From: Alphaproteobacteria bacterium
GTDB taxonomy: Bacteria > Pseudomonadota > Alphaproteobacteria > JABAAW01 > JAHZMA01
Assembly (NCBI GenBank): GCA_965205905.1
Contig: CBDBHZ010000012.1
Coordinates: 79,528-143,527, forward strand
Length of the DNA: 64,000 nt
Direction: 5' to 3'
Made by a program: the position numbers and the translations under genes. The number at the start of each line of letters is the position of its first letter. Within the stretch, counting starts at the first letter, position 1. The notes under the pieces are model-generated. The model was not told the DNA's origin. It searched no databases and saw nothing but the letters and a program-made list of their open reading frames with translations. Below are positions 22,352 to 42,384 of the stretch, piece after piece.

Positions 22352-23581
22352 TCATACATTGCTTTGCCTGATGACATCAATATCTTTTAATAATTTTGAA
22401 ATTCCTTGCAACAATAATAATATCGCCCCTACCACCATTCCAAATTTAATCGGCCAATATTGTATCGCCCATTCGGTGAACGAAACTTCCATCTGCCCTA
22501 ATGAATCAAACGCGAAAATCAATCCTGTTACCAATAATGTGCCAACAAAAATGAAGAAGAACACAGATGTTACGATATCAACGATGGCTTTTTTGCGGGC
22601 AGAAAATTTTGCATAAAAAATATCAACCCTCACATGGCTATTGGTGAGATAGGCGTAGGCGCCAGCCATTAAATATTGCATACCAAACATGAGAAACATC
22701 GATTCATGCGCCCAATTTGTAGGTGAATTAAACACGTAACGCACTGTTACTTCGTAATAATAAACAAACACCGCAATCACCGACCAATAGGCAACATATT
22801 CGCCTGAAAAAAGTGATATTTGGTCAATTTTTCTGATAAGTCCCAGTTTTTTATAAACGAAATCTGAGTCATTTTCCAACTCAGCTTGCAATTCAGGTGC
22901 TTCTGTATCGTCAGCCTCCGCCTGTTGCATTGCCAGTTTTTGATTGGCTTTTGCCACCATTTTAGGAAGCAAAATAGCATCAGCAATCATTAAAATAATC
23001 ACCGCAATAAAGGCGATAAGCGCGTAACTTCCCCATTTTTCTTTTTGCCCCGATGTTTGCCCCGCCACAGCTTGTAAGATGGTTAATTCATCGCGACCAT
23101 CACTCATGCGTGTTGCTATATCTTGTTTTTGCGCGGTTAATTTATCCAATTTACGTTGATGACGCTGATAATCGTTTGACTCGGCATCTTTATCAGCTTC
23201 GGCTTCCGCCATCAGCTGCTTGGTCTCCACCATATCTTCATCAATGTTGAGGCTCTTTTTTGCGTTCCGCGCCATCGATGATTCTAGCGCCGTAACATTT
23301 GCCACACTATCAGAATGCGTTACCCTTGCCTTATTTGCCGATGATGAGGCAAATAGAATGGTGGCGAATAACGCGCAAAACACAATTCCTAACAGGTTTT
23401 TGAGGTAAAAGCGATGCAGACCTAAAAATCCGCCCACCAGCCAAATGAAATAGGCAATATTATTTTGATAAGTCGTCGTTCTATTCAGCGTTTTGCGTGC
23501 CAAATACATCGCAATTAGCGGGAAAGCAAGTATCCCCACCCAATAAAACCAATGAGGCAATGTAAAATTAACGTCAGGCAT
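22352..23581 (-). CDS. TRAP small permease (DctQ) domain fused to an N-terminal TM2-domain plus a coiled-coil/charged linker (409 aa)
   Basis: The C-terminal ~170 aa are DctQ-like (4 TM helices). The N-terminus has ..FIWLVGGFLGLHRFYLKNLLG.., a TM2-domain (G.HRFY.G) hallmark, followed by an ~150 aa Ala/Glu/Lys/Gln-rich segment. The reading frame is continuous. Confidence 0.7.
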   Translation of the reverse strand: MPDVNFTLPHWFYWVGILAFPLIAMYLARKTLNRTTTYQNNIAYFIWLVGGFLGLHRFYLKNLLGIVFCALFATILFASSSANKARVTHSDSVANVTALESSMARNAKKSLNIDEDMVETKQLMAEAEADKDAESNDYQRHQRKLDKLTAQKQDIATRMSDGRDELTILQAVAGQTSGQKEKWGSYALIAFIAVIILMIADAILLPKMVAKANQKLAMQQAEADDTEAPELQAELENDSDFVYKKLGLIRKIDQISLFSGEYVAYWSVIAVFVYYYEVTVRYVFNSPTNWAHESMFLMFGMQYLMAGAYAYLTNSHVRVDIFYAKFSARKKAIVDIVTSVFFFIFVGTLLVTGLIFAFDSLGQMEVSFTEWAIQYWPIKFGMVVGAILLLLQGISKLLKDIDVIRQSNV

Positions 23582-25092: not shown

Positions 25093-25299
25093 CTATTTTT
25101 CTGTGGGCTCTAATGCGCGGGTGGGGTCTCCAACGATGATGGCGCGTTGCAACATATCCAGACGTTCAGGTGTCATAATGCTTTGTGGCACATAATCATC
25201 TCGGTTGATATATTCCTCGATGCCTTCGATAAGTTCTCTTTCTTCTTCATCGCAATAGCCATCAATGAATGGTTCAAATGATTCCATTTCTTTTTTCAT
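25093..25299 (-). CDS. Hypothetical small acidic protein (68 aa)
   Basis: ORF with a 4-nt overlap (translational coupling) to the upstream 122-aa ORF. No family recognised. Confidence 0.4.
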   Translation of the reverse strand: MKKEMESFEPFIDGYCDEEERELIEGIEEYINRDDYVPQSIMTPERLDMLQRAIIVGDPTRALEPTEK

Positions 25300-25664
25300 T
25301 GGCTAGAGGCTATTTTTTCAGTTGATTCAGTATTACTCGCGTTATTTGAAGATTTATTTAAGATAGCAACATCAACGGCAATATTCCGTAAGGTTTCATT
25401 AACCTCGTCAAATTTTGCATCTATTTTATCAAACCCTTTCGTTACATCAGCACGTAGATTTTTGACATCGTCATCTATGTTATTTACTTTTGCATCTAAT
25501 GCTATGACGTTTGAGTATAAGCCAGATATGAAAAAACTACCTGATAAAAGAGCGGTTCCCACTGCCAACACCACGCCAGCAATAACGCCAGTTACTGACG
25601 CAACCATCCACCATTTCTTTAAGTTTACCATACCAGAATTTATCATTATATTTTCTCCTTTCAT
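25296..25664 (-). CDS. Hypothetical membrane-anchored coiled-coil protein (122 aa)
   Basis: N-terminal hydrophobic helix (WWMVASVTGVIAGVVLAVGTALL) followed by heptad-like DAKVNNIDDDVKNLRADVTKGFDKIDAKFDEV. It is the first gene of a two-gene cassette bracketed by repeat copies A and B. Confidence 0.45.
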   Translation of the reverse strand: MKGENIMINSGMVNLKKWWMVASVTGVIAGVVLAVGTALLSGSFFISGLYSNVIALDAKVNNIDDDVKNLRADVTKGFDKIDAKFDEVNETLRNIAVDVAILNKSSNNASNTESTEKIASSQ

Positions 25665-25880: not shown

Positions 25881-25915
25881 AACAAAAAAGGCGCGGTGCT
25901 TGAGAGCATCGCGCC
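25881..25915 (-). terminator. Rho-independent terminator of the minus-strand giant lipoprotein gene
   Basis: Stem GGCGCGGTGC (25890-25899) / GCATCGCGCC (25906-25915) with a 6-nt loop. On the minus strand it is followed by TTTTTTGTT (complement of 25881-25889). It lies 22 nt downstream of the stop at 25938. Confidence 0.75.
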
Positions 25916-25937
25916 TTTGGTATTTAGTCTCTATCGG

Positions 25938-28900
25938 TTAATTATTCGGGTTATCCGCGCCGAAGAAGCCTACGAAGCTTGAGGTTTCACCGCTTACCGA
26001 GAATGTGCCGCCTAATTCTTCTGATGCTGGTCCGTAAAATCTGGCATTGGCTGTGCCTGATAATTCCGTGCCGTCAGCATCAACCGTGTCAAAATCTAAA
26101 TCAGTGCCTGCGGTTTTAACCGTGCCATTGATTTCGTTTGTGCTATAATTTAATGTGCCAGTCATATTCAAGTGTTTGTTAGCGCTGTCTCCACAAGGAT
26201 TAACGTTACTGCTAGAGCATGTTTCGGTTGTGTTGAAAGTGATACCCTTCGCTGGTTGGCTAAAATCAACTGTTGCTGTTACCTTAAAGTAACGTTCATG
26301 ATGAGTGCTAGCAGTCGTATTATATCTGCCACGACCTTTTCCTGTAAATGTTACTTCGCCTGCATCGGTTGGAATAGCAGCAGTTTCAAAACCAGTAATG
26401 ACATAACCTTTATCATACGTGTCAATCCCCCAAAAAAGTGTTGCCATATATTGTGCGGTAAAGCCATAATTAATGGAGGGTGTTCTGTTGAAATTAAACT
26501 CTATCGGATCCACACCATCGCTACTGAAGAAATTTGTGCCACTACCTTGAAAGTAAGTGTCATCAGCATTAGTTGCTGTAACAGTATGTTTTCTATCACC
26601 GATATAGGTTGAAACGCTTGTGATATTACCAAGACTACTATAGGTGATTTCAGCGACGCCACTTGTATAATGATAATTGTTGATTGTTTCAGCAGTGGTA
26701 TCTTTGTTTGTTCGCACTGCATTGCTCGTGCGGAGGGTGAGAGGGTTATTGGCAATATTATTCTTACGCTCCTCATCAGCAAAACCATCTGTGTAATCAG
26801 CAATATCAGCAAATGTAGTTGGCACATTATACGTCATGCCATCGCCTACATCGTCATAAGTTGCCTGCGTTGCTTTCACCTGCGTTGTTACCAACCAACC
26901 ATCGCGTTGCGCGCCGAAATAGCCTGTATAGCCTATACCTCCGTTGGCGAAGCTGAATGTGCCACCTAATTCGACGGCACCTGTTCCGTAAAATTTAGCA
27001 TTGGCATCGCCCGTAAGGCTTGTGGTGCTACCAGCATCATAGCTAAAGTCAGTACCCGTGCCATCTGTATCCGTATATGCGGCGTAGGCACCGCCTTTGG
27101 TGGTGAGTGCTTCGCCACCAGTATTATTGGTGCTTAAATCATTATCGCCATCGGCGTATGTTAATGTGCCAGTGAAGTCGAGGTCAGGGCGGGATGTAGC
27201 AGTGCAATGATTCTCTCTTAAACATGTTTTGGTGCTTGATAATGTTACTGTGCGCGCACTAAAATCAACATTGGCATTAATATCAAAATAATATAGAACA
27301 ACACCAGTATTACTAGCATCAAGGCTACCAGCACTATAACGTCCTTTCCCTGCGCCTGTGAAACTGATATTTTGATAGCCTTTCAGGATATCATCGCCAT
27401 CAGTGGTAAAGCCAAAAATGCCATAGCCAATTTCATAGGTTTTATTACCCATACCATCAGCAACACTTGCCACACTCCATTCAATCAGTGCCAGATAGTT
27501 TGGCACAACACCGAAACTTGATGTATCTCTGCTGAAAATAAATGTATACGGGCTATCAATCTGATTACTATTTGTAGTATAAGCCAAAGAAACTTCACCA
27601 CCAACTGAAGCTCCACCTACACCTGCATTATATAATCCACTCGCTGCCTTATATTTTGTCTCATCAAAATATGCTGTTAGGCTGGTTGGATCAATCGGAG
27701 CATTAGTAGTATTATTATATTTATATTTAACCACGCCACCGCTGATAATATCACTGGTAACAGTTTTATTAATACCATCATGGGTGATGCTCACCAGATT
27801 GTCGATTTCAAAAGTGGCTGTTTTATTTTTGCGGACATCATCATTAAAACTTGTGAATGGTAAGGTGAAATCTGTTGGCAGATTATCGCCTGCAACCATG
27901 CCATCATTATCTGAATCGGTTGTGGTAGTGGTTTCATTAACAATATAACCAATCTCGCCCCCAAAGAAGCCCACATAGGCTGCATTGTCGCTTGTGAGGT
28001 TGAATGTGCCGCCGAATTCGTTGGATTCTGGTCCGTAGAATTTAGCAGTTGCATCGCCTGTTAAACCGCTTGTGGTTTCAACATTATCGAATGCAAGGTC
28101 GTTACCTGTGAATTTCGCCATATCGGTTGTGCCGTAATCTACACTTGCTGTGAAATTAAGGTCAGCGCGCGCTGTGCCACAACTTACGCCAGTGCATGTG
28201 CCTGTGCTTGCCAATGAAACCGTGCGGTTGCCAAAATCAACATTGGCATTGATATTAAAGTTAGTGCTTATATTGCCAAAGCTATCAGAATAGCGACCAA
28301 CGCCCGCACCTGTAAATATAGTTGTGCCAGCAGCTAATGGCGCGACGGTTGCAAAACCTGTGATGCCATAGCCTACTGTTACTTTGGTTGAATCATCTGT
28401 ACTATCCGTAATGTCGGTATCATCTGTTAATACCCATCTCACCCTTGCCATATAATTTGCGGCGGTATCACCAAATGAATTTCTGCTTAAACTAAGATAA
28501 GCAGGGGCAATATTATCACTACTGCCCAGCGTGTAAGCTGTCTTATTAGCATTAAGCTCCTCATCAGTGGTTACCGCACCTTCTGTCCAATATTTTCTAT
28601 CACCAAGATAGATTGAGAGCGGTTTGCCTGAGCCTGCAAAATTGCCACCTGCATAATCAAACACAACCACGCCATTGGTGAAAATATCGTTATTTATCGA
28701 CTTATCCACAGAATTTCTGGTTATCTGCACGAAATTGGCAGATAAAGCATTGTCTAGCGTGCCGGTTTTAGCCGAATCGGTAAAGTTTGCGAGTGTATTC
28801 GAGTTTAATGTTGTCGGCACTGTTTCGGTTACGAGGTTTTCGGGGTCTGTATTATCCGTTACAATCTCAGCCAATGTTGCGGTGGTGATGGTTGCGGTGG

Positions 28901-31771
28901 TAACATAGCCACGCTCTGTGCCGAACCAACCGACATAACCGCCATTTAGGCTTGATAGGCTGAATGTTCCGCCCAATTCGTTGGTTAAACCGCCATAGAA
29001 ACGGGCAGAAGCCGTGCCTGTAAGTTCACTATCACCTATAATGGTAAAAGAATTATCAGAGCCTTGAGTGATAACATCAGCGAAATTGAGCGCGTTTGTG
29101 CCTGCGGTGTAAGTTGCATCACCCTTGAAATTAAGGTGATTGCGTTTTTCGGCACTTGCGTTACAACCTGCAGAAGAGGTGCAAGTGCCACTGCTTTCTA
29201 GCATAACCACGCGTGTGCCAAAATTAACATCTGCTTCAATGTTAAAGGAAATGGGGGTGCTTACCATGCCACCGCCATTGGTATTATAGCTATAAGCGCC
29301 TGCGCCCTTGCCAGTGAATGTGGTTGAACCAGTGCTGAAAAGCGGATTATCGCCATCGGTAGCGGTTTCAAACCCGCCAATGCCGTAGCCGATAGTATCG
29401 CCGACAACCCAATCAATCCGTGCCATATAGGTGGCATCAAAGCCGAACGGAGTTCTATCTAGGTTGAGAGACGCGCCCGAATCAGCCGTGCCATCTTTAT
29501 CAATATCAACAGCCGTGCCAGAAATGGATTTTAAATCAGATGAGGTGCCTAACGTTACCTGATAGATGCTACCGCCAATATAGAGTGTGGGCGCCTTTGA
29601 CGTTTCATTGAACTTATATCAAACGAACCACCACCATAGCGATAGCTAACCGCGCCACCCGTGAAGGTTTCGTTGGTAACAATATTGGCAGTGTTATCGG
29701 TGGTGATTTGCGCCATAGAGGCAACAGGTAGCGCGATAATACGTTGGACGCCGCCATCTACGACAAAGCTTGTTGCGCTATCAAGGCTTTGCACTGGCAC
29801 GTTATCGCTATCAGTTGCCACAGCATCTTTGGCATCAATCACATAGCCACGTTCTGTGCCGAATAAGCCAACATAGCCTATGGTGCTATCTGTTGTGCCG
29901 AAATTGAAAGTGCCGCCGAATTCTTCGGCGTTTGCTCCGTAAAATTTGGCTTGGGCTGTGCCAGAAAGGGAGGCGATATTGTTTGCGGGTGTTTGCGTAT
30001 CAACAAGCCCTGCGGTGGTTACCGCGCCCGTGATGGCGTTTGTGCCTGTATTGTAGCTTAAATTGCCCGTGAAGTTGAGGTCATCACGTTCCGTGTTTAT
30101 GCATTCACCAGAGCATGTGTCAGTGGTTGCGAGTGCAACATTGCGCGCGCCGAAATCAACTGTGGCGGTAATATCAAAGCTAGTGCCAAAAGTTCCAATG
30201 CTATCAGAATAGCGACCCCAACCCTCGCCCTTGAAGATGGTAACGCCAGAGGGGATAAGTGCCGTGCTGGCGGTTTCAAAGCCAGTAACGCCAAAGCCGT
30301 AATTATCGTAATCATAGTCAATATCAGTTGTGCTGGCGGCATTATCGTTATCTAGCACTTTCCATCTTAAACCGAGCATGTAATCAGCCTGAAAGCCGAA
30401 CAGAACGCGTCTATCAAGGCGGGCAGTATTAGGGGCAATGCCATCAGTGCTGGTTACGCTGCCAGCACTGGACGCAGATTGAATGTAATCAGCATCAGTT
30501 TCGGCATTTTTCGTGATTATCTGATAGGTGGTATCAGTAAGATAGAATTTGATGCTAGTAGAAAGAAAGTTTAAGCCATTATAAGCAAATTCTAACGTGC
30601 CAGTGATGTTTTCAGCATTGATATTCATGCCATCAGCAGGACGGGTGATGCCCACCAGTGAATCAATATCAAAGATAACAGTTTTATTAGCACGATTGGC
30701 ATCGTTAAGACTGGTTAATGCCATAAGGTCTTCAGATGGGCGCAATATGCCACGTTGACCGCCATAAAACGCGCCATAATAGTAGTTTGTTGCGCTTGAG
30801 ACGGCGAATGTGCCGCCAAATTCATTGGCACCACCGCCAGCCGCATTGCCATAGAAACGGGCATCAAGACTGCCTGCCATGCCATCTAAATCAGTGAAAC
30901 TGTGGTTGATATTGTTTATAGTGGCATAGTTGATGTTGGTTACGGCGAAATCAAGTTGCGTCAACTGTTCTGTTCCCGCTTTTGTGTTGTTGGCGGTGAT
31001 GTTTACATTGGTATTTGTAAAATCAGCGACGGTGGTAACATCAAATGTAACATCTTTGCCGCCATCAACAGTGCCATAAACACCCGCGCCCGCACCCGTA
31101 AATGTGGTTGTGTTAGAGAGAGGGATATTGCCATCTTCGGTGAGAACACCCGCGATCGCCATGCCGTGAATATTGTTAGATGAGCCTGTTGTTGCGCTAT
31201 CCGTAAATTCGGTTTCGTTAATGTTCCAGTTGATATAGGCGACATAATCAGAGGCAAGCCCGAAAAGAGTGTTTCTAGTAACCGTGCCAGTTAGCGATTC
31301 GCCAGCATCGCCATAATTTATGGTTGCCGAATCAGCGGTAGCGTTAAATGTGATGTTAGCAGTCGCGCCAGTGATTCGCGTTGGGGTGATTTGCTGATCG
31401 ATTTGTAATTTTGATTTATCGTTAATATCCCAAGCCGTGTTGGCAGCCGAATCGGCACGTGTGTAGTCGCCGTTATCGTTCAGGGTAACCGCCAAAGCCG
31501 ATAATGTTATGAGGGTATCGTCAGTAACATCAGCAAGTGTAGGGTATGTGGCGCTATCAAAAACGGTATCGTTCGGGGTTGTGGTTGATACCATATCAAG
31601 CGGGTTGATGGTTGCTGATTCGCTTCCCACGAAGACTGGGTCAGTAGGGGCAGGGGCAGGGTCAGGGTCAGTATTGCTAGCGCCTCCGCCTCCGCCAGAA
31701 CTGCCACCGTTACAAGCGGTGAGGGTGATCAGTGATAAAACTGAGATGGTTGAGATAAGTAAATGACGCAT
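25938..31771 (-). pseudogene. Giant surface lipoprotein 2 (~1940 aa if intact), interrupted by a -1 frameshift near 29555-29620; 1 type-1 + ~5 type-2 lobe modules. It is either a true pseudogene/phase-off allele or an assembly error in repetitive DNA
   Basis: True start ATG at 31771 (MRHLLISTISVLSLITLTAC|NGGSSGGGGGASNTDPDPAPAPTDP, RBS AAGGA), 39 codons inside track ORF 29555..31888. Frame A ends ...VSYRYGGGSFDISSMKRQRRPHSILAVASIR* at 29555. The conserved sequence continues in the -1 frame (YKFNETSKAPTLYIGGSIYQVTLGT...RTPFGFDATYMARIDW), running into track ORF 25938..29426, whose listed 'M' is an internal Met of the conserved FGF...YMA.I.W motif. Confidence 0.6.
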
Positions 31772-31807
31772 GATTTCTATCCTTTTAACATAGCGATAGA
31801 TAAAATT

Positions 31808-31836
31808 ACTATAATGTTTTTTTGGTTGGGGTGCAA
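31808..31836 (-). promoter_or_regulatory. Candidate sigma70 promoter of giant gene 2: -35 TTGCAC (31836-31831), 17-nt spacer containing an A7/T7 homopolymer (31817-31823), -10 TATAGT (31813-31808)
   Basis: Read on the minus strand: TTGCACcccaaccaaaaaaacatTATAGT, ~37 nt upstream of the ATG at 31771. Confidence 0.4.
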
Positions 31837-31877
31837 TAGTGGTTATGGAAATTTTGATAATATCAGCGAGATATAAC

Positions 31878-31905
31878 TTGACTATCATTTGATATTGCTT
31901 ATGAT
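31878..31905 (+). promoter_or_regulatory. Candidate sigma70 promoter of giant gene 3: -35 TTGACT (31878-31883), 16-nt spacer, -10 TATGAT (31900-31905)
   Basis: Read directly in the 166-bp divergent intergenic region; the ATG is at 31938. Confidence 0.4.
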
Positions 31906-31937
31906 ACAGGGTGGTTTTGTTATTTGAGGATTAAGTT

Positions 31938-34900
31938 ATGAACAAATATTTTTATATCATCACTTTATTAATGGTTTCTGTTTTTTTGAATGGTTGTAGC
32001 ACAGAACGTGGTGGCAGTGGCATTGTGAGCTCTGGCGTTGTGAGCGATGATGTGTTTATCGCTGATAGCATTAAGAAAGATGAGACTGATGAAGTTTTTG
32101 CAACCGTTACTCCCTATGGTTCGTTGACGGCAGCATCGGCTGATATCGAGAATACGGACGATAAAATATTCACCTTGCAAGGGTTGGCGGTGCAAGGTGG
32201 TGAGGTTACCAATTACACTGCCGGTGGCGATTTTGGGTGGTCGCAAGATGGTGAGACAAGCATCACTGTTGCCACCATCACAGCGCCTGCTGTGAGCCTC
32301 ACTTTTGATGGTAATGGCAAGATGTCGGCAGTAAAAGCTTATTTCGCTGATAAAACCTATGAAGTTTCCGCTAATGGTAATGATTCCGCCATGCAGATTA
32401 GCGCAACAAATATCACCAGTGGTGCACAAACAGATGCCACTATCGCCACACTTACTGTGGATAGAGACGAGGTTTTTGGCTTTGATTCTAACTATATGGC
32501 ATATATTGGCTGGAATCTTGAAAGAACGCAAGGTGATGCTAATCGTTTAGACTCGCTTGGTAGTGGTAAGGATAGGGCTTATAGTATCAATGGTAATATG
32601 ATTGTAGGAATTGAAACCGATGATGTGAGTATTCCTAGAAATGGTGAGGTTAGTTTTATCGGCAAAGGGCGCGGCTATTACAGCCATGTTGATAAAGGAA
32701 TCAGTAGCCATGCCACGATATTTGATGTTACGACTGATGTTGATTTTTCTACTCAAACTATCAATGTTAATAGTGCGAATACAATGCAATGTGGCAATAG
32801 CATTGATGTTAGCAGTTGCAAAACTGCTGTAGGTGCGCTTGAATTTAGCACGCAAGAAACATTTGTTTACATCACTAATAATAAGATTGGTTTTCGTGGC
32901 GATGTTTCGCTGAAATCCGATAGTAGTTTTACAGGCACCATTGATGCGCGTTTTTATGGCAGTCGCGCACAGGAATTAGGCAGCATATTTGCGATGCGTG
33001 ATGAAACAGGTGGCTATTATTATGGCGCATTTGGCGGTGAGCGCGAGGGGGTGGAAGCGCCCAGCGTATTTAATACAGCAATAGGTGATGAGGCATTAAT
33101 TGTTGCCGAAGAAATAAAGATAGATAATAAGATTACAAACAACCTTCCTGTTAATTCGCTGACCGCTGTGGCTGATGCGGGCGATGGCAATGCGTTTACG
33201 ATGCGCGCTTTAACTGTTTATAAAGATGATACCACCGATTACATACGTGCGCCAAATCGGGATTGGGCTAGGGCGGATACAGCGCGTATGGTTGGACTCA
33301 CACAATTAAGTGGCGCTGCGGCGTCTCTCACTTTTGATGCTGCTGGTAAGATATCAGGTGTAACTGCCTATTTGAATAGTAAAACCTATACAGTCAATGT
33401 GATTGATGACACACTTACACCCACTGCCACGATGTTTAGTGCCAGTATTAACGGTGCGGATAAAGATGCACGCACGACTAACATTACTGTTGATAGAGGC
33501 GATAAATTTTTTGGCTTTGATTCTAATTATATGGCGCATATCAGTTGGAATTTGGAAAAAACAGACGATAAGCTTACGACCGATATGTTGGATGTATATG
33601 ATGACATTTATCATATCAGCGGTGCGATGTTGGCAGGGATTGAGACTGATGATGCGGATATTCACTTGTTCGGCAATCAAGTTTCCTTTAATGGTAAAGG
33701 GCGTGGCACTTATGGTGATTTAGATGGAAGCTATGATACTATATTTGATATAACAGCGATTGTTAATTTTAGCGCGCGCAATCTACTGCTTGCTAGCTCT
33801 AATACTTGCAAAGCGACTGACTGCGAGAATGAGGCGATGCGTGACCTTGATTTCAGTATTTCATCAGCGCCGATATTCTATAATAGTAATAATATCAGTG
33901 CTAATATAAATGATGCAGATTTCGGCTCAGTTGCGCTTGATGCGCGTTTTTATGGCGGTGATGCGTGGGAGTTTGGTGGCACATTCGCGATAACATACGC
34001 GACTAATAATAGCTATTATTATGGCGCATTCGGTGCGTTACGTAAAGGTATCACTGCGCCATCGATATTTGATGCCACAATAGACAGTGAGACGGTAAAG
34101 CTACCAGATAATGTTACGGCGCCGTTTATTCCTATTGATATTGCTACCAACAACCCTTATGAATCTCTCACTGCCATTGCAGGCACTGATAAACGCGTGG
34201 TGCTGAATGCTCTATCAGTTTATAAAGATGATACCACTATTTACACACGGGCGCCAAAGCGAGATTGGGCAACAGATGCGGATAAGGTAACAACAACCAG
34301 TATTCTCAGGCTTACTGACTCTGTTGCATCGCTTGTTTTTACTGGCGATAATAAAGGTGAAACGCTTTACGTGAATGATGTTTATACCAATGATAATGCC
34401 ACAATTACTGTTGATAGAAGTAAGGTTTTTGTTTTTGGTTCTAGCTATATGGCTTATATCAGTTGGGGCATAGATAATGAATTTGATAATGATAACACGG
34501 GCTTAACGGGTGAAGTTGTTGATATTAGTGGTAAGATGCTTGCTGGTATTGAGACCAATGATATGAATATCGCCTTAACTGGCGAGGTTTCCTTTAACGG
34601 CAAAGGGCGTGGCACTTATGGTAATGCAGACGAAGAAATCTACGATACTGTGTTTGATGTTAGGGCGGGAGTTGATTTTGTCGCCAAGAATGTTACGATT
34701 TGGAGTGAGAACACATGCAAAGCAGGTGATGATGCAAAATGTGATGTTGGTGGTGCAGATAGGCGTGATTTTCTTGATTTTACATCAGCGATATTAAGTT
34801 ACGCTGATGGGGAAAGCAATGCGGTCAATCATATCAGCGGTGCTGTTCATGCAGATGGCTTGGCGGGCACAATTGATGCGCGTTTTTATGGTGGTGCAAC

Positions 34901-37900
34901 CGAAGAATTTGGTGGCACATTCGCGCTTACCAACCTATCAAACTATTATTATGGGGTGTTTGGTGCGTTGCGTGGTGGCATTGCTGCATCGACAATATTT
35001 GATAACAACATCGTTGATGAGACGGTAACGCTTCCAGCTGATGTTACCATCAGCACCACTCATAACTCCCTTACCGCTGTGGCTAAAGCAAGCGGCACGA
35101 ATAGTCTCACAATGAAAAGTTTAGCGTTTTATCAAAAAGATACCACCGATTACACGCGGGCGGAAGGTCGCGAATGGAGCACAGCAGATGAGCAAAAAAC
35201 AAGCAGCATGGTCAGGTTGCTGGATTCTGCCGCATCACTTAGTTTTGATGGTGGCGATGTTTCAGCTGTAACGGTTTATTTGAGTGGCACGAATCATACT
35301 GCTGACGCAAGCAAAGTGAAGCGCGCGGCTGATTTTTTTGGCTTTGATTCAAACTATATGGCCTATATCAGTTGGGACATAGATAATCATTTTGATGATG
35401 ATAGCGAGGGTTTAGAGGCGAGTGTTGTTGATTCTAACGGTGTGATGCTGGCGGGTATAGAGACTGCTAGCTTGCTAGATATAACCGCTGGCACAGTTGA
35501 CTTTATCGGCAAAGGGCAGGGTTCTTATGGAGATGCGGACACAAGCTATGACACCATCTTTAATGTGATTGCATCAGTTGATTTTGCTGCAAATAATGTA
35601 ACGATTCGCAGTGAAAACACATGCAAGGCAGTTGAAAATGCTGATTGTGGCGAGAGTGGCACTGATAGGGTGAATGGTCTTAATGTCAACACAGTCGCAA
35701 TCGGCTATGCTGCTAATAGTATCAGCATAAGAAACTTAAATGTAAAAGATATGGATGGTGCGCTTGATGCCCGTTTTTATGGTGATGCAACGCGAGAATT
35801 TGGTGGCACATTCGCGTTTGCCAGTAATATAAGCTATTATTATGGCGCGTTCGGTGCGGAACGTGATGGTGTTGCTGCGCCGATTATATTGAATGTTGCG
35901 AATAATGTGTCGGTAACGTTGCCAAATGATGTTAACATCAGCACCACCTATAACTCTCTTGCCGATGTGGCTGATAGCATCTCTCTTGCCGATATTTATT
36001 ATGGCATAGTCACGAAAAGCATCACGATGAACGCGCTATCTGCCTATCACGATGATACCACCCTTTACACGCGTGCAAGCACGGATAAAGTTTGGACTAC
36101 TAAAGCCGATAAAGCGCAAACCATTGATATTAAAAGTTTTCGTGGCGCGGCGGCATCTCTCATTTTTGATAGTGATGGCAATATATCAGGCGTAACGGCC
36201 TATTTGAACGGGCGCACCTATATTTCCGATGTGATTGATGGCACACTTACTGCCACATCATTTGAAGCAAGCATTACTGGTGCAGATAGTGATGCCAGCA
36301 CGGCAACCATCACTGTTGATAGAAGCGCGCTTTTCGGCTTTGCCTCTAACGATATGGTTTATATCAGTTGGAATCTGGAGAAAACTGAAAGCGCACTTGA
36401 TAACACAATAGAAGATAGCATTTCTAGCAATACTGGCGCGATGATAGCTGGCATTAAAACGTATGAGCTCAATAGTGTCAAATTTCTCAAGGATATAACA
36501 TTTTCAGGTAAGGGGCGTGGCACTTATGGCACGGTGGAAAATAATGAGCTCAAGGGTTATAATACCGTTTTTGATGTTATCGTTGATGTTAATTTGGCTA
36601 ATGCTAGAAAAGCAACGATTCGCAGTGAAAAAACATGTGAGGCGGTTGATAATCCCGATTGCGCGGATGGTGGTGCGAATCGGAAGGATTTTCTTAATTT
36701 CAGCACGGGCGAAATCGCTTACACAGGCAACAGCATCAGCGGTGATGTTGCGCTTGGCAGTAGTAATCTATTTAAAGGCACGCTTGATGCCAGATTTTAC
36801 GGCTATGTTAGGCATGAAATTGGTGGCACATTCTCGCTTGCCAATAGTAACAGCTATTATTATGGTGCGTTTGGTTCAAAGCGCGATGCAGTTTATCAAT
36901 TTGATTTGAATGCTAGTCAGGTTGAATTGCCTGTGGGTGTTGTTGCGAAGCAGAATGTCGCTATACCTGATGCTTCTATTTATCATGCGATTAGTGATAA
37001 AAGTGGCACAGAAGATAGGCTGTTTACCATGAAGGCACTCTCTGTTGGTGTATTTGCTTACACTAATTATGCGCGCTCGCCCAACTATGAGGCATGGGAA
37101 ATATCTGATAGAGATAAATATGTACAATTGGCAAGGTTTGAAAATTCTTTTGCATCGCTTACCATTGATGGAAGCGGAAATTTATCGAATATAGAGGCTT
37201 ACACAAAGGCTGGCTTCGCTAATCTTTCTTACACAGGCAGTTCCTCTAGCCTCAATCAAACCACATTAAGCAGTGATATCAATAATTTTAGAGGAAGCTT
37301 TGCATGGTATGAGACTGATAGCACAACAATCAACGTATCGCGTGATACCAGTCTGTTTGGCTTTGAAGCGACTGATATGGTCTATATCAGTTGGAATATC
37401 GTTGAAAAATTAGGTAATTATGAAAAGCGGGATAGGCAACAAAAACGGCATGGCATGATGATTGCGGGCATTGAAAGTGAGCTTGCACAGATTCCCACCA
37501 TAGAATCAGTAACATTTTCAGGCAAAGGGCGCGGTTATTATGCAAATCTTAAAACTGAAACTGGCTTCCATACAATCTTTAATGTAACGGCGCAAGTTAA
37601 TTTTGCTAATAAGAGCCTATTCATTAGCAGTGATGCGCCTCAAAGATGCACGGATGTGGAAGATGCCAGCACTTGCACTGGTTCGGGGCTTAATGGCTTC
37701 AACGCAATTAATATTCAGTTTTTGGCTAATAATATCAGTGGTGATATTGCTATGGCTAGTAGTGGTACTATACCTCGCTTATCAGGCAAGTTTGATGCGC
37801 GGTTCTATGGTGATGCGGCGCATAAATTGGGTGGCACATTTGCCCTAAGTGATAATGATGGTGATAGTGATAATACGCGCTATTATTATGGGGCGTTTGG

Positions 37901-40900
37901 TGCGCAACGGCTAGATGCTATCACGCAATTTAAGTTTGATGAGACATTGGCTGAAGAATCAGGGCCAAAATCAACATTAGCCTATCTTACCGACAATCAA
38001 ACAGAGTATGATTCGCTTCATGCGGTGGCAGTTACTGATGGCAGTAATAGCTTTACCACCAATGGCAGCGCTGTCTATCAAAGCAATCATATTGATTATG
38101 CCAGAATTGCCAATAAGCAATGGGGTGATGCCAGCACTGATACCGACCATAACATTAATCTCGGCAGGCTTAGTGATGTGGGTGCATCGATTAATTTTGA
38201 TGCTAATGGCAATATTTCAGGCTTTGCCACCTATCTATCAATTAATCCCTATATTGCCACCAATATCTATACAATTACGGTGGATAATCCAGTCTCTAAT
38301 ACTGATGTGGTCTCGCAAAATATCACTGCTACTGATACTCCTGATGATGCCATTACGGGCGTGATGAATCTCTATCGCGGGCAAAGCTTTTTCGGCTTTA
38401 ACTCATATTATATGGCTTATATTGATTGGCAGGTTACCAGAGACTTTACCGATTTAGGCACTGGCACCACTGATAAAAGCTATGATTATAGCGGCGCCAT
38501 GCTCACGGGTATAGAAACAGAGGATGTTAGAATTTTCAATTTGACGGAAGGCATATTTGACTTTAAGGGCAAAGGGCGCGGTGTCTATCACAATACGGAT
38601 ACGGGCAAAGGCGGGCAGACAATCTTTGATGTAACCGCCAATGTTGATTTTGCCACTAAAAAACTCACCATCAATAGTTCAAATAGCATTGTCTGTTTAG
38701 ATATTAACAATATCGGCACTTGCACATCTAACCATAATATCGGTGAATTTTCTAACGGAAGCACCCCTATATCTTATATTGGTAATAATATTAACGGAGC
38801 TGTTACTGCCACTATCGGTAATGCTAGCCTATCAGGCACACTTGATGCCCGCTTCTATGGTGTTAGCCCGTATGGTAGTGGCGCGTATGAATTAGGTGGC
38901 ACATTCGCCATGACTGGAGGCGATTATTACTATTATGGCGCATTCGGTGCTGAACGAATCTATACCAGTGTTGAAAATGTTGCTACCACCCATTCTGAAA
39001 CTCCCTCATCCTCTGATTTTAATAAGCATACTCTAACAGGCTTTAATGCTAACAATCTTGCAGGTAAAACAGGTAATGCCCTACCTGCCAATGCGGTGCA
39101 AATAACAGAATATGACAGTGATCAAAAAATCCTCACTGAAAACATCATGGGTGCAGTGGTAGAATTTGATTATGATGGCGATAGTGAATTTAGCAAATTA
39201 ACATTATATTTTGATGATAAAAAATACATAACAGACGGTTATCCAAACACTGATTCTTTATACATTAAGGATGATTCACCCAGTGGTGGTGCCTATTCAA
39301 TATTCTTTAGAAGAGATTATATTTTCGGTTCTACGAAGAATTATATGGCGGGTGTTGCATGGTCTGTTTCAGTAGATGATTATCCTGAATATTATACTGC
39401 AAGTTATGCCGTTACGGGTTTTGAAACTGTTACAATTCCGGGTAGTGATATGATTGTGTTTACAGGCGAAGGGCGCGGATATTATTCAACGAGTCAGGGG
39501 TTGGGTGAGACTAGTAGTTATGTTTTCTTTGATGTAACTGCCAATATTGATTTCAGCAACCGAAAAGTATATCTATTTGCCAGTGATACTTATCATTTTC
39601 CTCAACTTGATTTTACGGGTCAATTAAGCTATCAAGCAGGCACTAATAACATTAGCGGTGCTATTGAAACAATCGGTGATGGTTATACCAACCTAACAGG
39701 CACAGCCGATGCCAAATTTTATGGCACAGGTGCTGATAGTGCCACAGAATTTGGAGGCACATTCAGCCTGTATAACGAGCAATCAGCCTATGTTGGTTAT
39801 TTCGGTGCAAGCAAATTTATTGATAATATCATAACGACAACCATTACCACTCCTGCACTTAATCAACATAATTTAACAGGCTTTTATGATGGCAACCGCA
39901 CAAGTAAAACCAATAATGCCCTTAAAGCAAGCACTGTGCAGATAACCAAACAGAAAAGCGGTGATGAAGAAATCACCAACGATAGAATCACGGGTGCTGT
40001 GTTTGAATTTGATTATGATGCTGATGGTGATTTTGTGGGTATTCACCATTATTTAGCTGATAAAAAATATAGCAGGACTTCTTCTAATGGCGGTGAAACT
40101 CGTCTTGAATGGGGAACGGTTACGACAAGTAATGGTGACAAACTTAATAATTTTGCGTTCAACACAGAAGGGAGATATATGGCAAGGGTTAAATGGAGAT
40201 TGCTTGAAGAGGAATATACCTATAGAACTTATGCTTATGGTTTCACTGGTTATGAAACCAACTCTATCCCTACCACTGGTGCTGTTAGATTTGCTGGCGA
40301 AGGGCAAGGACAGTATTATTCTACTGACGATTATCCTGATGAGATTTACTTTGATGTAATCGCCAATGTTGATTTTAGCAACCATAATATAACTTTATTA
40401 GTCGGCGAGCTATTATTCGGCAATGAAATTGATCAGAGTCACCATCTTGATTTTACCGCTAATTTAAGCTATCAAGCAGGCACAAATCTTATTAAAGGTG
40501 CGGGTGTAACCATTGGTGATGAGTACGGTAACAACAAACTAATAGGCACGGTTGAAGCAAAATTTTACGGGCCCAATGCCGTAGAATTTGGCGGCACCTT
40601 TAGCTTAAGCAATGATGATACAGCATATATAGGTTACTTTGGTCTTTCACAAAAATATACTCTCTCTCATCAAACATTGGCAACCACATTTCCCAATGTG
40701 CCAACAGCGCCAGCTACCAGCATAACAGGTTTTGATGATACAAACCGCAACAACACAAGTAACCATACCTTAAACAGCACTGTGGTGCAGATGATAAGCA
40801 ACCCTGCTGATAAAATCACCACTCAAAGTAACATTACTGGTGCGGTGATACAGTTTGACTATGATTCTAATGCTAATTTTAACGGCGTAAGGTTCTATTT

Positions 40901-42380
40901 TGATAATAAAAAATATAGCACGACTGCAACTGGAGATAATAATAAATTGAACGATAGTTGGACTGTTGATGCAGGCATTCATAATAGTCCCGATGATTTT
41001 AAATTCACCCAGAAGGCTGTGCCTGATGACTACAATAGCTTCGACTTTGCCCCTAGCTATATGGCATGGCTTAATTGGCACTCCTATGAATATGGCTATG
41101 TTGACGATGGTTATGCTGTTACTGGTTTTGAAACGGCTGATATTCCTACCGTTACGGGCATAACCAGTTTTACAGGCAAAGGGCAAGGGGAGTTGAATGA
41201 TGATACTTATTTACTTATAGCTGCTGATGTTAATTTTAACAGCCTTCAAGTAAAACTATCAGCCACACATGAAGGTTATCTTAGCGAGCTTGATTTCACA
41301 GGTATATTAAGCTATGTAGCAGATAAAAATCTGTTTGCAGGTGATATTACAACCACAGGTGGCATTTATTTCTCAAAAATGTTTGGCACAGCCGAAGCCA
41401 GACTTTACGGACCCAATGCTGAAGAATTTGGTGGCACATTTGCTTTACAAAATGATGATTTTGCCTATATTGGTTGGTTTGGGGCGATACGACCTGCGGG
41501 AACTCTTACCAATCAAGCACCAGTGGCTGACTTTGAACAAGATAAAACAACCTCCACTCCCACCACTGCGCCTGCGGTTTTCAACCAAAACAATCTCACT
41601 AGCTTGAGTGATGATGCCCGTATCGGCACAAAAGGTAATAAATTACTTGGCATGGTAACCACGCTCACCAAAGCAAGCGATAATACAGTTACCAATGGCG
41701 GTATCACCTCTGCCGCAGCTGAACTTTCTTATGCTGATGATGCTAAATTTAATGGTTTAACTCTCTATCTGCCTGATAGAAAATATAGCACAACCGATGA
41801 AATTGATACGGATAATTATATTTATGATAATACGCCCAGTGCTGATGACGGGCATGATACACCGAACACCTTTGGGTTAAGCAAATCTGCCTCGCCTTTC
41901 TCGTTTGCCGCAGATTATATGGCACGCATTTACTGGCGATTAGATAAAGCGAGTCATGGTTATGATGGCTATGGTTACGCCATCACTGGTTTTGAAACTG
42001 ATAGCAATAATATCCCCACCACTGGCGGAGCTACATTCACAGGCAAAGGCGAAGGGCAATATTATAGTAATAATAGCAGTAAGAAATATTTTACTGTAAC
42101 CGCCACTGCTAATTTTGCCACCCGCAATATCAACCTAGCAACCACGCATACTGATACGAACTATAGTTATCTTAACCTAACAGGCACTTTAAACTATGCG
42201 GAAGATACAAACGCCATCACTGGCGCGGTTGAAACCGTTGGCACTGGCACGGAAGCATCAAAACTGAAAGGCACGGCAGAAGCCAGATTTTACGGGCCAG
42301 CGGCAGAAGAATTAGGCGGGGTATTCAGCGTTAGCAATGAAAATGCAGGCTATATCGGCTATTTCGGAGCGAGGAAATAA
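31938..42380 (+). CDS. Giant surface lipoprotein 3 (3480 aa): lipobox FLNGC|ST, ~7 type-1 + 4 type-2 TbpB-like lobe modules
   Basis: Start MNKYFYIITLLMVSVFLNGCSTERGGSG... The YYYGAFG marker recurs at ~33010, 34011, 34944, 35834, 36854, 37880 and 38925. Type-2 module ends (AYVGYFGASK, AYIGYFGLSQK, AYIGWFGAIRP, GYIGYFGARK) fall at ~39790, 40630, 41470 and 42350. Each module carries a conserved Cys pair (e.g. NTCKAGDDAKCD). Confidence 0.85.
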   Translation: MNKYFYIITLLMVSVFLNGCSTERGGSGIVSSGVVSDDVFIADSIKKDETDEVFATVTPYGSLTAASADIENTDDKIFTLQGLAVQGGEVTNYTAGGDFGWSQDGETSITVATITAPAVSLTFDGNGKMSAVKAYFADKTYEVSANGNDSAMQISATNITSGAQTDATIATLTVDRDEVFGFDSNYMAYIGWNLERTQGDANRLDSLGSGKDRAYSINGNMIVGIETDDVSIPRNGEVSFIGKGRGYYSHVDKGISSHATIFDVTTDVDFSTQTINVNSANTMQCGNSIDVSSCKTAVGALEFSTQETFVYITNNKIGFRGDVSLKSDSSFTGTIDARFYGSRAQELGSIFAMRDETGGYYYGAFGGEREGVEAPSVFNTAIGDEALIVAEEIKIDNKITNNLPVNSLTAVADAGDGNAFTMRALTVYKDDTTDYIRAPNRDWARADTARMVGLTQLSGAAASLTFDAAGKISGVTAYLNSKTYTVNVIDDTLTPTATMFSASINGADKDARTTNITVDRGDKFFGFDSNYMAHISWNLEKTDDKLTTDMLDVYDDIYHISGAMLAGIETDDADIHLFGNQVSFNGKGRGTYGDLDGSYDTIFDITAIVNFSARNLLLASSNTCKATDCENEAMRDLDFSISSAPIFYNSNNISANINDADFGSVALDARFYGGDAWEFGGTFAITYATNNSYYYGAFGALRKGITAPSIFDATIDSETVKLPDNVTAPFIPIDIATNNPYESLTAIAGTDKRVVLNALSVYKDDTTIYTRAPKRDWATDADKVTTTSILRLTDSVASLVFTGDNKGETLYVNDVYTNDNATITVDRSKVFVFGSSYMAYISWGIDNEFDNDNTGLTGEVVDISGKMLAGIETNDMNIALTGEVSFNGKGRGTYGNADEEIYDTVFDVRAGVDFVAKNVTIWSENTCKAGDDAKCDVGGADRRDFLDFTSAILSYADGESNAVNHISGAVHADGLAGTIDARFYGGATEEFGGTFALTNLSNYYYGVFGALRGGIAASTIFDNNIVDETVTLPADVTISTTHNSLTAVAKASGTNSLTMKSLAFYQKDTTDYTRAEGREWSTADEQKTSSMVRLLDSAASLSFDGGDVSAVTVYLSGTNHTADASKVKRAADFFGFDSNYMAYISWDIDNHFDDDSEGLEASVVDSNGVMLAGIETASLLDITAGTVDFIGKGQGSYGDADTSYDTIFNVIASVDFAANNVTIRSENTCKAVENADCGESGTDRVNGLNVNTVAIGYAANSISIRNLNVKDMDGALDARFYGDATREFGGTFAFASNISYYYGAFGAERDGVAAPIILNVANNVSVTLPNDVNISTTYNSLADVADSISLADIYYGIVTKSITMNALSAYHDDTTLYTRASTDKVWTTKADKAQTIDIKSFRGAAASLIFDSDGNISGVTAYLNGRTYISDVIDGTLTATSFEASITGADSDASTATITVDRSALFGFASNDMVYISWNLEKTESALDNTIEDSISSNTGAMIAGIKTYELNSVKFLKDITFSGKGRGTYGTVENNELKGYNTVFDVIVDVNLANARKATIRSEKTCEAVDNPDCADGGANRKDFLNFSTGEIAYTGNSISGDVALGSSNLFKGTLDARFYGYVRHEIGGTFSLANSNSYYYGAFGSKRDAVYQFDLNASQVELPVGVVAKQNVAIPDASIYHAISDKSGTEDRLFTMKALSVGVFAYTNYARSPNYEAWEISDRDKYVQLARFENSFASLTIDGSGNLSNIEAYTKAGFANLSYTGSSSSLNQTTLSSDINNFRGSFAWYETDSTTINVSRDTSLFGFEATDMVYISWNIVEKLGNYEKRDRQQKRHGMMIAGIESELAQIPTIESVTFSGKGRGYYANLKTETGFHTIFNVTAQVNFANKSLFISSDAPQRCTDVEDASTCTGSGLNGFNAINIQFLANNISGDIAMASSGTIPRLSGKFDARFYGDAAHKLGGTFALSDNDGDSDNTRYYYGAFGAQRLDAITQFKFDETLAEESGPKSTLAYLTDNQTEYDSLHAVAVTDGSNSFTTNGSAVYQSNHIDYARIANKQWGDASTDTDHNINLGRLSDVGASINFDANGNISGFATYLSINPYIATNIYTITVDNPVSNTDVVSQNITATDTPDDAITGVMNLYRGQSFFGFNSYYMAYIDWQVTRDFTDLGTGTTDKSYDYSGAMLTGIETEDVRIFNLTEGIFDFKGKGRGVYHNTDTGKGGQTIFDVTANVDFATKKLTINSSNSIVCLDINNIGTCTSNHNIGEFSNGSTPISYIGNNINGAVTATIGNASLSGTLDARFYGVSPYGSGAYELGGTFAMTGGDYYYYGAFGAERIYTSVENVATTHSETPSSSDFNKHTLTGFNANNLAGKTGNALPANAVQITEYDSDQKILTENIMGAVVEFDYDGDSEFSKLTLYFDDKKYITDGYPNTDSLYIKDDSPSGGAYSIFFRRDYIFGSTKNYMAGVAWSVSVDDYPEYYTASYAVTGFETVTIPGSDMIVFTGEGRGYYSTSQGLGETSSYVFFDVTANIDFSNRKVYLFASDTYHFPQLDFTGQLSYQAGTNNISGAIETIGDGYTNLTGTADAKFYGTGADSATEFGGTFSLYNEQSAYVGYFGASKFIDNIITTTITTPALNQHNLTGFYDGNRTSKTNNALKASTVQITKQKSGDEEITNDRITGAVFEFDYDADGDFVGIHHYLADKKYSRTSSNGGETRLEWGTVTTSNGDKLNNFAFNTEGRYMARVKWRLLEEEYTYRTYAYGFTGYETNSIPTTGAVRFAGEGQGQYYSTDDYPDEIYFDVIANVDFSNHNITLLVGELLFGNEIDQSHHLDFTANLSYQAGTNLIKGAGVTIGDEYGNNKLIGTVEAKFYGPNAVEFGGTFSLSNDDTAYIGYFGLSQKYTLSHQTLATTFPNVPTAPATSITGFDDTNRNNTSNHTLNSTVVQMISNPADKITTQSNITGAVIQFDYDSNANFNGVRFYFDNKKYSTTATGDNNKLNDSWTVDAGIHNSPDDFKFTQKAVPDDYNSFDFAPSYMAWLNWHSYEYGYVDDGYAVTGFETADIPTVTGITSFTGKGQGELNDDTYLLIAADVNFNSLQVKLSATHEGYLSELDFTGILSYVADKNLFAGDITTTGGIYFSKMFGTAEARLYGPNAEEFGGTFALQNDDFAYIGWFGAIRPAGTLTNQAPVADFEQDKTTSTPTTAPAVFNQNNLTSLSDDARIGTKGNKLLGMVTTLTKASDNTVTNGGITSAAAELSYADDAKFNGLTLYLPDRKYSTTDEIDTDNYIYDNTPSADDGHDTPNTFGLSKSASPFSFAADYMARIYWRLDKASHGYDGYGYAITGFETDSNNIPTTGGATFTGKGEGQYYSNNSSKKYFTVTATANFATRNINLATTHTDTNYSYLNLTGTLNYAEDTNAITGAVETVGTGTEASKLKGTAEARFYGPAAEELGGVFSVSNENAGYIGYFGARK
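32100..38960 (+). repeat. Intragenic tandem array of ~7 type-1 lobe modules in giant gene 3 (period ~900-1050 bp), followed by 4 type-2 modules to 42380
   Basis: Motif periodicity read from the translation. Boundaries are approximate. Confidence 0.65.
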
Positions 42381-42384
42381 CATC

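Follow-up and report, generated by a model that had tools for sequence, protein, structure and literature searches.

A giant lipoprotein gene on the minus strand of the window, i.e. the whole 64,000-nucleotide stretch analysed here, is split in two by a one-base frameshift of an ordinary kind; the protein family that the gene belongs to is unusual but recognisable. As judged from alignments with homologues, the gene lacks one base within positions 29613-29620. We consider it probable that this reflects a genuine, recent mutation and no regulated event, by which one gene out of a set of at least five paralogues has become a nascent pseudogene or a truncated allele. The host is an uncultured free-living marine alphaproteobacterium.

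Reading frames and junction of the split gene

Scanning the minus strand for stop codons delineates two frames (Table 1). Frame A is free of stops from 31771 down to the TAA at 29557-29555 and contains 52 stops beyond that point. The −1 frame, frame B, contains 78 stops upstream of the break, the last being the TGA at 29621-29619, and is then open over 1,226 codons, with its next stop at 25940-25938. If 5% of codons are stops, a stop-free run of this length has a chance of about 5e-28. The two frames overlap by 21 codons. On the minus strand the junction reads ggt ggt tcg ttt gaT/ATa ag ttc, corresponding to ...ggt ggt tcg ttt gat ata agt... in frame A and ...tat aag ttc aat gaa... in frame B, with the junction codons Asp at 29620-29618 and Tyr at 29618-29616. 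A frameshift in a minus-strand lipoprotein gene had been reported in the earlier note, and both its coordinates and its sequences were reproduced here. The same note predicted that one added base would give a single 5.8-kb ORF; the restored frame indeed amounts to 1,944 codons.

In its longest version the frame-A ORF extends from 31888 to 29555 (777 codons). Marked by the AAGGA motif, ATG 31771 is the predicted true start, and the stretch up to 31888 would be a mere open extension. The frame-A product contains the signal peptide, the whole of modules 1 and 2 and the first 75 residues of module 3, followed by 20 out-of-frame codons (ISSMKRQRRPHSILAVASIR) and the TAA. At the other end of the gene, the palindromic hairpin is likely to serve as transcription terminator of the whole gene, and the promoters of the broken gene and its divergent paralogue presumably both lie within the intergenic region. 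In public data the two halves appear as separate gene calls on one 579,725-bp contig; P0001 (738 aa) and P0012 (1,162 aa) are identical to the translations of the window.

Table 1 Features of the split gene and giant lipoprotein genes of the window (window positions)
Feature	Position	Strand	Remarks
Frame-A ORF, 738-aa prolipoprotein as the sequence stands	29555..31771	-	Identical to public protein P0001
Shine-Dalgarno-like AAGGA, 8 nt 5' of ATG 31771	31780..31784	-	
Eight-base interval GATATAAG with the apparently missing nucleotide, relative to the ancestral gene	29613..29620	-	From homologue alignments and tblastn
TGA, last frame-B stop before the break	29619..29621	-	Bounds the frame change on its 5' side
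Frame-B continuation, 1,226 sense codons and stop	25938..29618	-	Rest of module 3, modules 4-6
14-bp palindromic G+C-rich hairpin, 20 nt beyond the stop codon of the gene	25887..25918		
Divergent intergenic region, 166 bp, between the broken gene and giant paralogue (31938-42380, + strand)	31772..31937		
Giant lipoprotein gene	7807-17109		10 modules
Giant lipoprotein gene 2 (broken)	25938-31771	-	6 modules
Giant lipoprotein gene 3	31938-42380	+	11 modules
Giant lipoprotein gene 4	42385-52140		10-12 modules; own start 42385, lipobox LNGC

Homologues, modules and predicted product

The proposal of one ancestral gene split by a −1 shift, already made in the earlier note, is borne out by P0002, P0003, P0004 and P0069, four homologues encoded in other genomes whose reading frame is continuous over the break. 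Searching with the restored sequence returned P0002 (1,516 aa), P0003 (1,273 aa) and P0004 (1,333 aa), each in one frame over the break. A blastp query of 130 residues centred on the break aligned end to end with P0004 and P0003 (62% identity), P0069 (48%) and P0002 (42%). Comparison of the restored sequence with P0003 and P0004 required no gap (SFDYKFNETSKAP versus SFDTGFNTTSKAP), and the motif SYRYGGGSFD/YKFNETSKAPTLYIGGSIYQVT is likewise positioned opposite SYRYADGSFDTGFNTTSKAPRLYIGSSIYQVT without a gap. The homologues match frame-A residues SYRYGGGSF upstream of the eight-base interval and frame-B residues FNETSKAPTLYIG downstream of it. In tblastn, residues 69-141 of P0004 fell on frame -1 (29800-29585), whereas residues 133-1333 fell on frame -3 (29612-25941). 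As the frame-B stop at 29621-29619 bounds the change on one side and the conserved frame-B F-N from 29612 on the other, the lesion is placed within 29613-29620. Adding one base restores the length of the closest homologues whereas removing two loses a residue, so that a one-nucleotide deletion is the parsimonious event.

The restored product, 1,944 residues long, starts with a lipobox signal and continues with six modules of 300-350 residues each. Its N-terminus (MRHLLISTISVLSLITLTAC) was judged by eye to be a lipoprotein signal with the lipobox LTAC (Cys20), in agreement with the earlier assignment of a signal peptide to the 5' part. Modules 1 and 2 resemble modules 1 and 2 of P0002 (70% and 46% identity), and modules 3-6 are colinear with the entire mature part of P0004, i.e. 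its modules 1-4 (58, 66, 64 and 57% identity). Comparison of the sequences thus identifies the gene as an apparent mosaic of modules. Both P0003 and P0004 carry a signal peptide of their own upstream of the module that matches module 3. A recombination joint at the break itself was considered and rejected, as the homology to P0003 and P0004 continues through it and GC3 is unchanged there.

Each module is predicted to consist of a TbpB-like β-sheet handle and an 8-stranded barrel. The Pfam family TbpB_B_D (PF01298) is matched in both halves of the gene with 28.5 and 72.4 bits (cut-off 26), and the match in the upstream half covers residues 572-679 of the 777-aa version of the frame-A ORF. An AlphaFold2 (AF2) model of restored module 3, calculated from 24 aligned modules, gave a pLDDT of 86.5 and a pTM of 0.88 and depicts a nine-strand handle followed by an eight-strand barrel. 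In this model the break falls between residues 75 and 76 of the module, within the loop 71-85 that connects handle strands 63-70 and 86-89. The top 50 matches of the model in a Foldseek search of the PDB were TbpB, LbpB, fHbp, HphA (hemophilin) and NHBA. A profile search also reached TbpB in the PDB (E = 4e-4), whereas a PDB search with the single sequence gave no match. The NCBIfam equivalog model NF041636 (slam_lipo) returned 18.9, 26.5 and 74.7 bits, all below its 80-bit cut-off.

The consequences of the break for the product can be outlined from these features. The single ancestral gene would have encoded a predicted surface lipoprotein of 1,944 residues, with a Sec/lipobox signal and six TbpB-like modules. 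Loss of one nucleotide within the DNA coding for the loop between two handle strands of module 3 would cause ribosomes to read 20 wrong codons and to terminate at 29557-29555. The product would then be limited to a 738-aa prolipoprotein, i.e. 719 aa once the signal is cleaved, which refines the ~740 aa given in the earlier note for the only lipoprotein made from the sequence as written. It would comprise two complete modules and an unstructured appendix of 95 residues, and the C-terminal barrel of the native protein would be lost; for cargo of the TbpB type, this domain has been put forward as the one that targets the protein to the Slam/T11SS translocon (PMC12282271; PMC5449769). The remaining 3.7 kb would stay untranslated because they offer no Shine-Dalgarno sequence and no signal peptide, and the first ATG follows 190 nt on. 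Frame B holds no start codon before this ATG at 29426, no Shine-Dalgarno sequence ahead of it and no signal peptide. The public protein P0012 (29426..25938, 1,162 aa) begins within a handle domain (MARIDWVVGD), and it is probably an annotation artefact instead of a real product.

Three further giant lipoprotein genes accompany the broken one in the window, and a fifth paralogue, P0008, is found elsewhere on the same contig. A second frameshift was considered between genes 3 and 4, as the reading frames at 31938-42380 and 42337-52140 overlap, and was rejected: gene 3 has a normal barrel terminus and gene 4 its own start. When 1.84 billion representative proteins were searched with a profile, 146 of them emerged as relatives at E < 1e-30; the longest of these measures 4,491 aa and was matched in 16 stretches. 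The scan for DUF560/Slam genes and TonB-dependent receptors covered the ORFs of the 64 kb with 150 aa or more, apart from a single short overlapping ORF and giant gene 4, and detected neither; DUF560 was not found beside the homologue P0006 in L081 either.

Searches for the same locus in other genomes returned no orthologous DNA. Alignment of the junction module against genome contigs and metagenome contigs gave no confirmed relative, and tblastn against plasmids gave no match. Anchoring the search on DctP yielded 80 loci with 73-84% identity (Parvibaculaceae, Sneathiellales and other MAGs), and a TbpB-like gene was present at none of the 80. The proteins of the window are alone in their 90% clusters (size 1) except for HgmA, whose cluster-mates are proteins of “Alphaproteobacteria bacterium” MAGs.

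With regard to the surroundings, the genes nearby serve catabolism and transport, among them those of the homogentisate pathway, TRAP, MttB and a glycine-betaine ABC system. HgmA has counterparts with over 90% identity in “Alphaproteobacteria bacterium” MAGs, and DctP is 82-84% identical to its counterparts in Parvibaculaceae and Sneathiellales MAGs.

Origin of the break

The state of the distal part bears on the age of the event. The 1,226 codons beyond the break carry no second lesion, and modules 3-6 retain 15 of 15 invariant and 18 of 18 near-invariant module positions. The event is accordingly either very young or artefactual. Two sets of observations speak for a real mutation, which is the reading we favour. 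First, the break lies in DNA that has no second copy in the window, the best other match to the surrounding 600 bp being 38 bp at 84%, and the site is no homopolymer. Second, the other ~30 genes of the window match their Pfam models over the full length, and the three remaining members of the giant family (29.5 kb) are uninterrupted, which argues that the assembly is not prone to indels. Moreover, a real mutation is favoured by the size of the gene, 5.8 kb, which makes it a large target, and by its redundant paralogues, which would leave it under weak constraint.

The main competing explanation is an error in the consensus. Here the organism would carry an intact gene of 1,944 codons, and the base would have been dropped during assembly or polishing, e.g. 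where a mixed population is polymorphic. Such mixed-strain errors are known from the variable surface genes of MAG-type assemblies, and the present source looks like an unannotated assembly of this type, with MAGs as its nearest relatives. The lesion is the only one, the frame after it stays open for 1,226 codons with all conserved residues retained, and the restored sequence aligns to the homologues ungapped; the absence of further decay is predicted equally by a consensus error. Conversely, the site is no homopolymer, its surrounding DNA has no close counterpart in the window, and no other broken gene exists in the 64 kb, including the 29.5 kb of the same repeat family. On balance we regard a consensus error as a serious though somewhat doubtful explanation. 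The earlier note had left the choice between a recent pseudogene and a consensus indel. This remains a real alternative, whereas the specific cause suggested there, an indel in repetitive DNA that is hard to assemble, is not supported: the repeats exist at the protein level only, as is evident from the uniqueness of the break DNA and the divergence of the modules, whose repeats are only 60-80% identical at the DNA level.

It is also conceivable, albeit improbable, that the broken form is a true allele favoured by selection in the population. On this reading, lobe number and display would be tuned by module recombination and truncating mutations, e.g. under pressure from phages or grazers; the 738-aa product would be a working two-lobe lipoprotein of TbpB size and not debris; and the giant surface lipoproteins with 6-16 TbpB-like lobes would form an undescribed class. 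A literature search found nothing on giant TbpB-like lipoproteins with 6-16 modules.

Returning to the single-base mutation, its reversal by a contingency mechanism is highly improbable. Reversible phase variation would require slippage at a repeat to switch the gene off, as was suggested by the term “phase-off variant” in the earlier note. The gene does encode a surface protein, and some Neisseria genes for lipoproteins of the TbpB family, e.g. hpuA, are phase-variable via poly-G tracts. Still, the ~1.9 kb to either side of the break are free of tandem repeats, and homopolymers of six or more are absent within ~2.2 kb, which also substantiates the earlier observation that no long homopolymer lies at the change. 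TRF reported nothing near 29.6 kb. The only runs of at least six are A6 at 26432 and T7 at 31817, and the sole repeats in the gene are hexanucleotides at 31646-31696 that preserve the frame. With no repeat tract or homopolymer near the break there is no basis for reversible switching, and phase variation is effectively refuted by the sequence.

Recoding, i.e. programmed −1 ribosomal frameshifting or transcriptional slippage that would yield a full-length protein from the split gene, is less probable still. The 21-codon overlap of the frames and the perfectly preserved downstream frame are compatible with it, and the trans-frame peptide would read ...GGGSFDYKFNETSK... However, no X XXY YYZ heptamer is found at ucg uuu gau aua agu, tRNAs on GAU or AUA would not re-pair in the −1 frame, and no run of A or T is available for slippage of the polymerase. 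The frame-B TGA leaves a slot of two codons for the shift. The 116 nt downstream fold worse than shuffled sequences (MFE −17.9 versus a shuffle mean of −23.5 kcal/mol, z = +1.82). Moreover, P0002, P0003, P0004 and P0069 are each encoded in a single frame, so the two-frame layout is not conserved. Since heptamer, re-pairing, A/T run and RNA structure are all missing and the homologues are single-frame, we consider programmed frameshifting very unlikely as the mechanism.

The notion of two genes that were never joined, a two-module lipoprotein and an independent four-module protein, has a negligible probability: public calls do list two proteins, and P0003 and P0004 show that a gene with modules 3-6 only exists elsewhere, but those two have a signal peptide of their own before the module corresponding to module 3, while the break here lies 75 residues into module 3 and not at a module border, and the downstream ORF starts inside a handle domain with no Shine-Dalgarno sequence, signal peptide or lipobox.

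Comparison with known systems

The restored protein shares an N-terminal lipobox and the handle-barrel module with TbpB, LbpB, fHbp and HphA, the surface lipoproteins of PF01298 that depend on Slam (type 11 secretion). It differs in module number, as the restored gene encodes six modules and its neighbours 10-12, whereas Slam substrates have one or two barrels per protein (PMC5449769). Further differences are that no Slam or TonB receptor was found among the ORFs scanned in the 64 kb, that the slam_lipo scores stay below cut-off, and that the host is free-living and marine whereas the known proteins belong to animal-associated bacteria. The “Sphingomonas surface proteins” and “Psychrobacter surface proteins” are multi-TbpBBD proteins and predicted T11SS cargo (PMC12282271). 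They are likewise lipoproteins with repeated handle-barrel pairs from environmental Proteobacteria, but have two to three pairs and proline-threonine-rich N-termini (PMC12282271), as compared to 6-12 pairs here. If the giant lipoproteins are exported, this raises the questions of how a T11SS-type or other system would handle multi-lobe cargo of 350 kDa, and which ligands they bind in seawater.

With respect to the break, the locus agrees with ordinary frameshift pseudogenes: a single indel, contiguous homologues, a stop 20 codons on and a distal part that lacks expression signals. Nothing essential differs. The sole peculiarity is the flawless distal 3.7 kb, which again dates the event as very recent or marks it as artefactual. 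Neisseria hpuA also encodes a surface lipoprotein with the TbpB-like fold and loses its frame through a poly-G tract; here there is no repeat tract. For annotation purposes, P0001 and P0012 are best regarded as two pieces of a single gene. The frameshift adds nothing new on recoding or phase variation. The giant-lipoprotein context is more notable, as the 6 to ~12 lobes encoded by the genes of the window are far above the one to three described so far.

Module composition and size of the giant lipoproteins

Two module types, A and B, make up the arrays between 7807 and 52140 of the window. Type A modules, which end in ...YYYGAFGA.R, form the N-terminal arrays, and type B modules, with the ending ...Y[VI]G[FYW]FG, form the C-terminal arrays. 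Every giant lipoprotein gene of the window starts with a type A module and finishes with one of type B; the broken gene, split by a single missing base, comprises a single type A module followed by five of type B. Proteins of the TbpB-like fold have been described with one to three handle-plus-barrel units (PMC5449769, PMC12282271). The largest relative in public data, P0023, is 4,491 aa long and shows 16 matched stretches; within the literature collection searched, no paper dealt with such giant TbpB-like lipoproteins.

Giant lipoprotein genes and two further ORFs of the window
Feature	Position	Strand	Description
Giant lipoprotein gene	7807-17109	+	3,100 aa, 10 TbpB-like handle-plus-barrel modules
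Giant lipoprotein gene (broken)	25938-31771	-	1,944 aa restored, 6 TbpB-like handle-plus-barrel modules
Giant lipoprotein gene 3	31938-42380	+	3,480 aa, 11 TbpB-like handle-plus-barrel modules
Giant lipoprotein gene 4	42385-52140	+	3,251 aa, 10-12 TbpB-like handle-plus-barrel modules
DctQ small-permease ORF, TRAP transporter	22352-23581	-	409 aa
122-aa ORF	25296-25664	-	Between broken gene and dctP

Possible exchange among modules

Comparison of giant genes 3 and 4 revealed a 157-nt stretch of 99% identity (34470-34626 versus 43957-44113), whereas their remaining repeats are 60-80% identical. This stretch looks as if gene conversion had recently copied it from one of the tandem paralogues to the other. 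In the broken gene GC3 is uneven, at about 0.45-0.5 across the first ~1,000 codons and 0.23-0.35 in some stretches of modules 5 and 6. This unevenness, along with a head resembling P0002 and a body resembling P0004, both homologues from other genomes, suggests a mosaic that arose by module recombination.

Two window ORFs, and a split gene on another contig

The DctQ domain is confined to residues 273-401 of its ORF, which carries an unusually long N-terminal extension and a weak TM2-domain match at residues 40-73. The sole match of the 122-aa ORF, to NPV_P10, is weak and below threshold, and probably coiled-coil-like. On the ENA metagenome contig ctg6052_2x (L081), which is unrelated to the window and bears the homologue P0006, a DUF1223 gene lies in two overlapping ORFs of 83 and 177 aa (3004-3730, minus strand). 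This is probably a frameshift, perhaps introduced as a low-coverage consensus error.

Flanking genes and partners

The TbpB-like genes are flanked by catabolic and transport operons, including the homogentisate pathway, glycolate oxidase, TRAP DctPQM, MttB and a glycine-betaine ABC transporter. Among the scanned ORFs of at least 150 aa across the whole window (1-64000), neither a Slam/T11SS (DUF560) outer-membrane gene nor a TonB-dependent receptor occurs near the four TbpB-like genes, in contrast to known systems, where these partners usually adjoin the TbpB-like gene.
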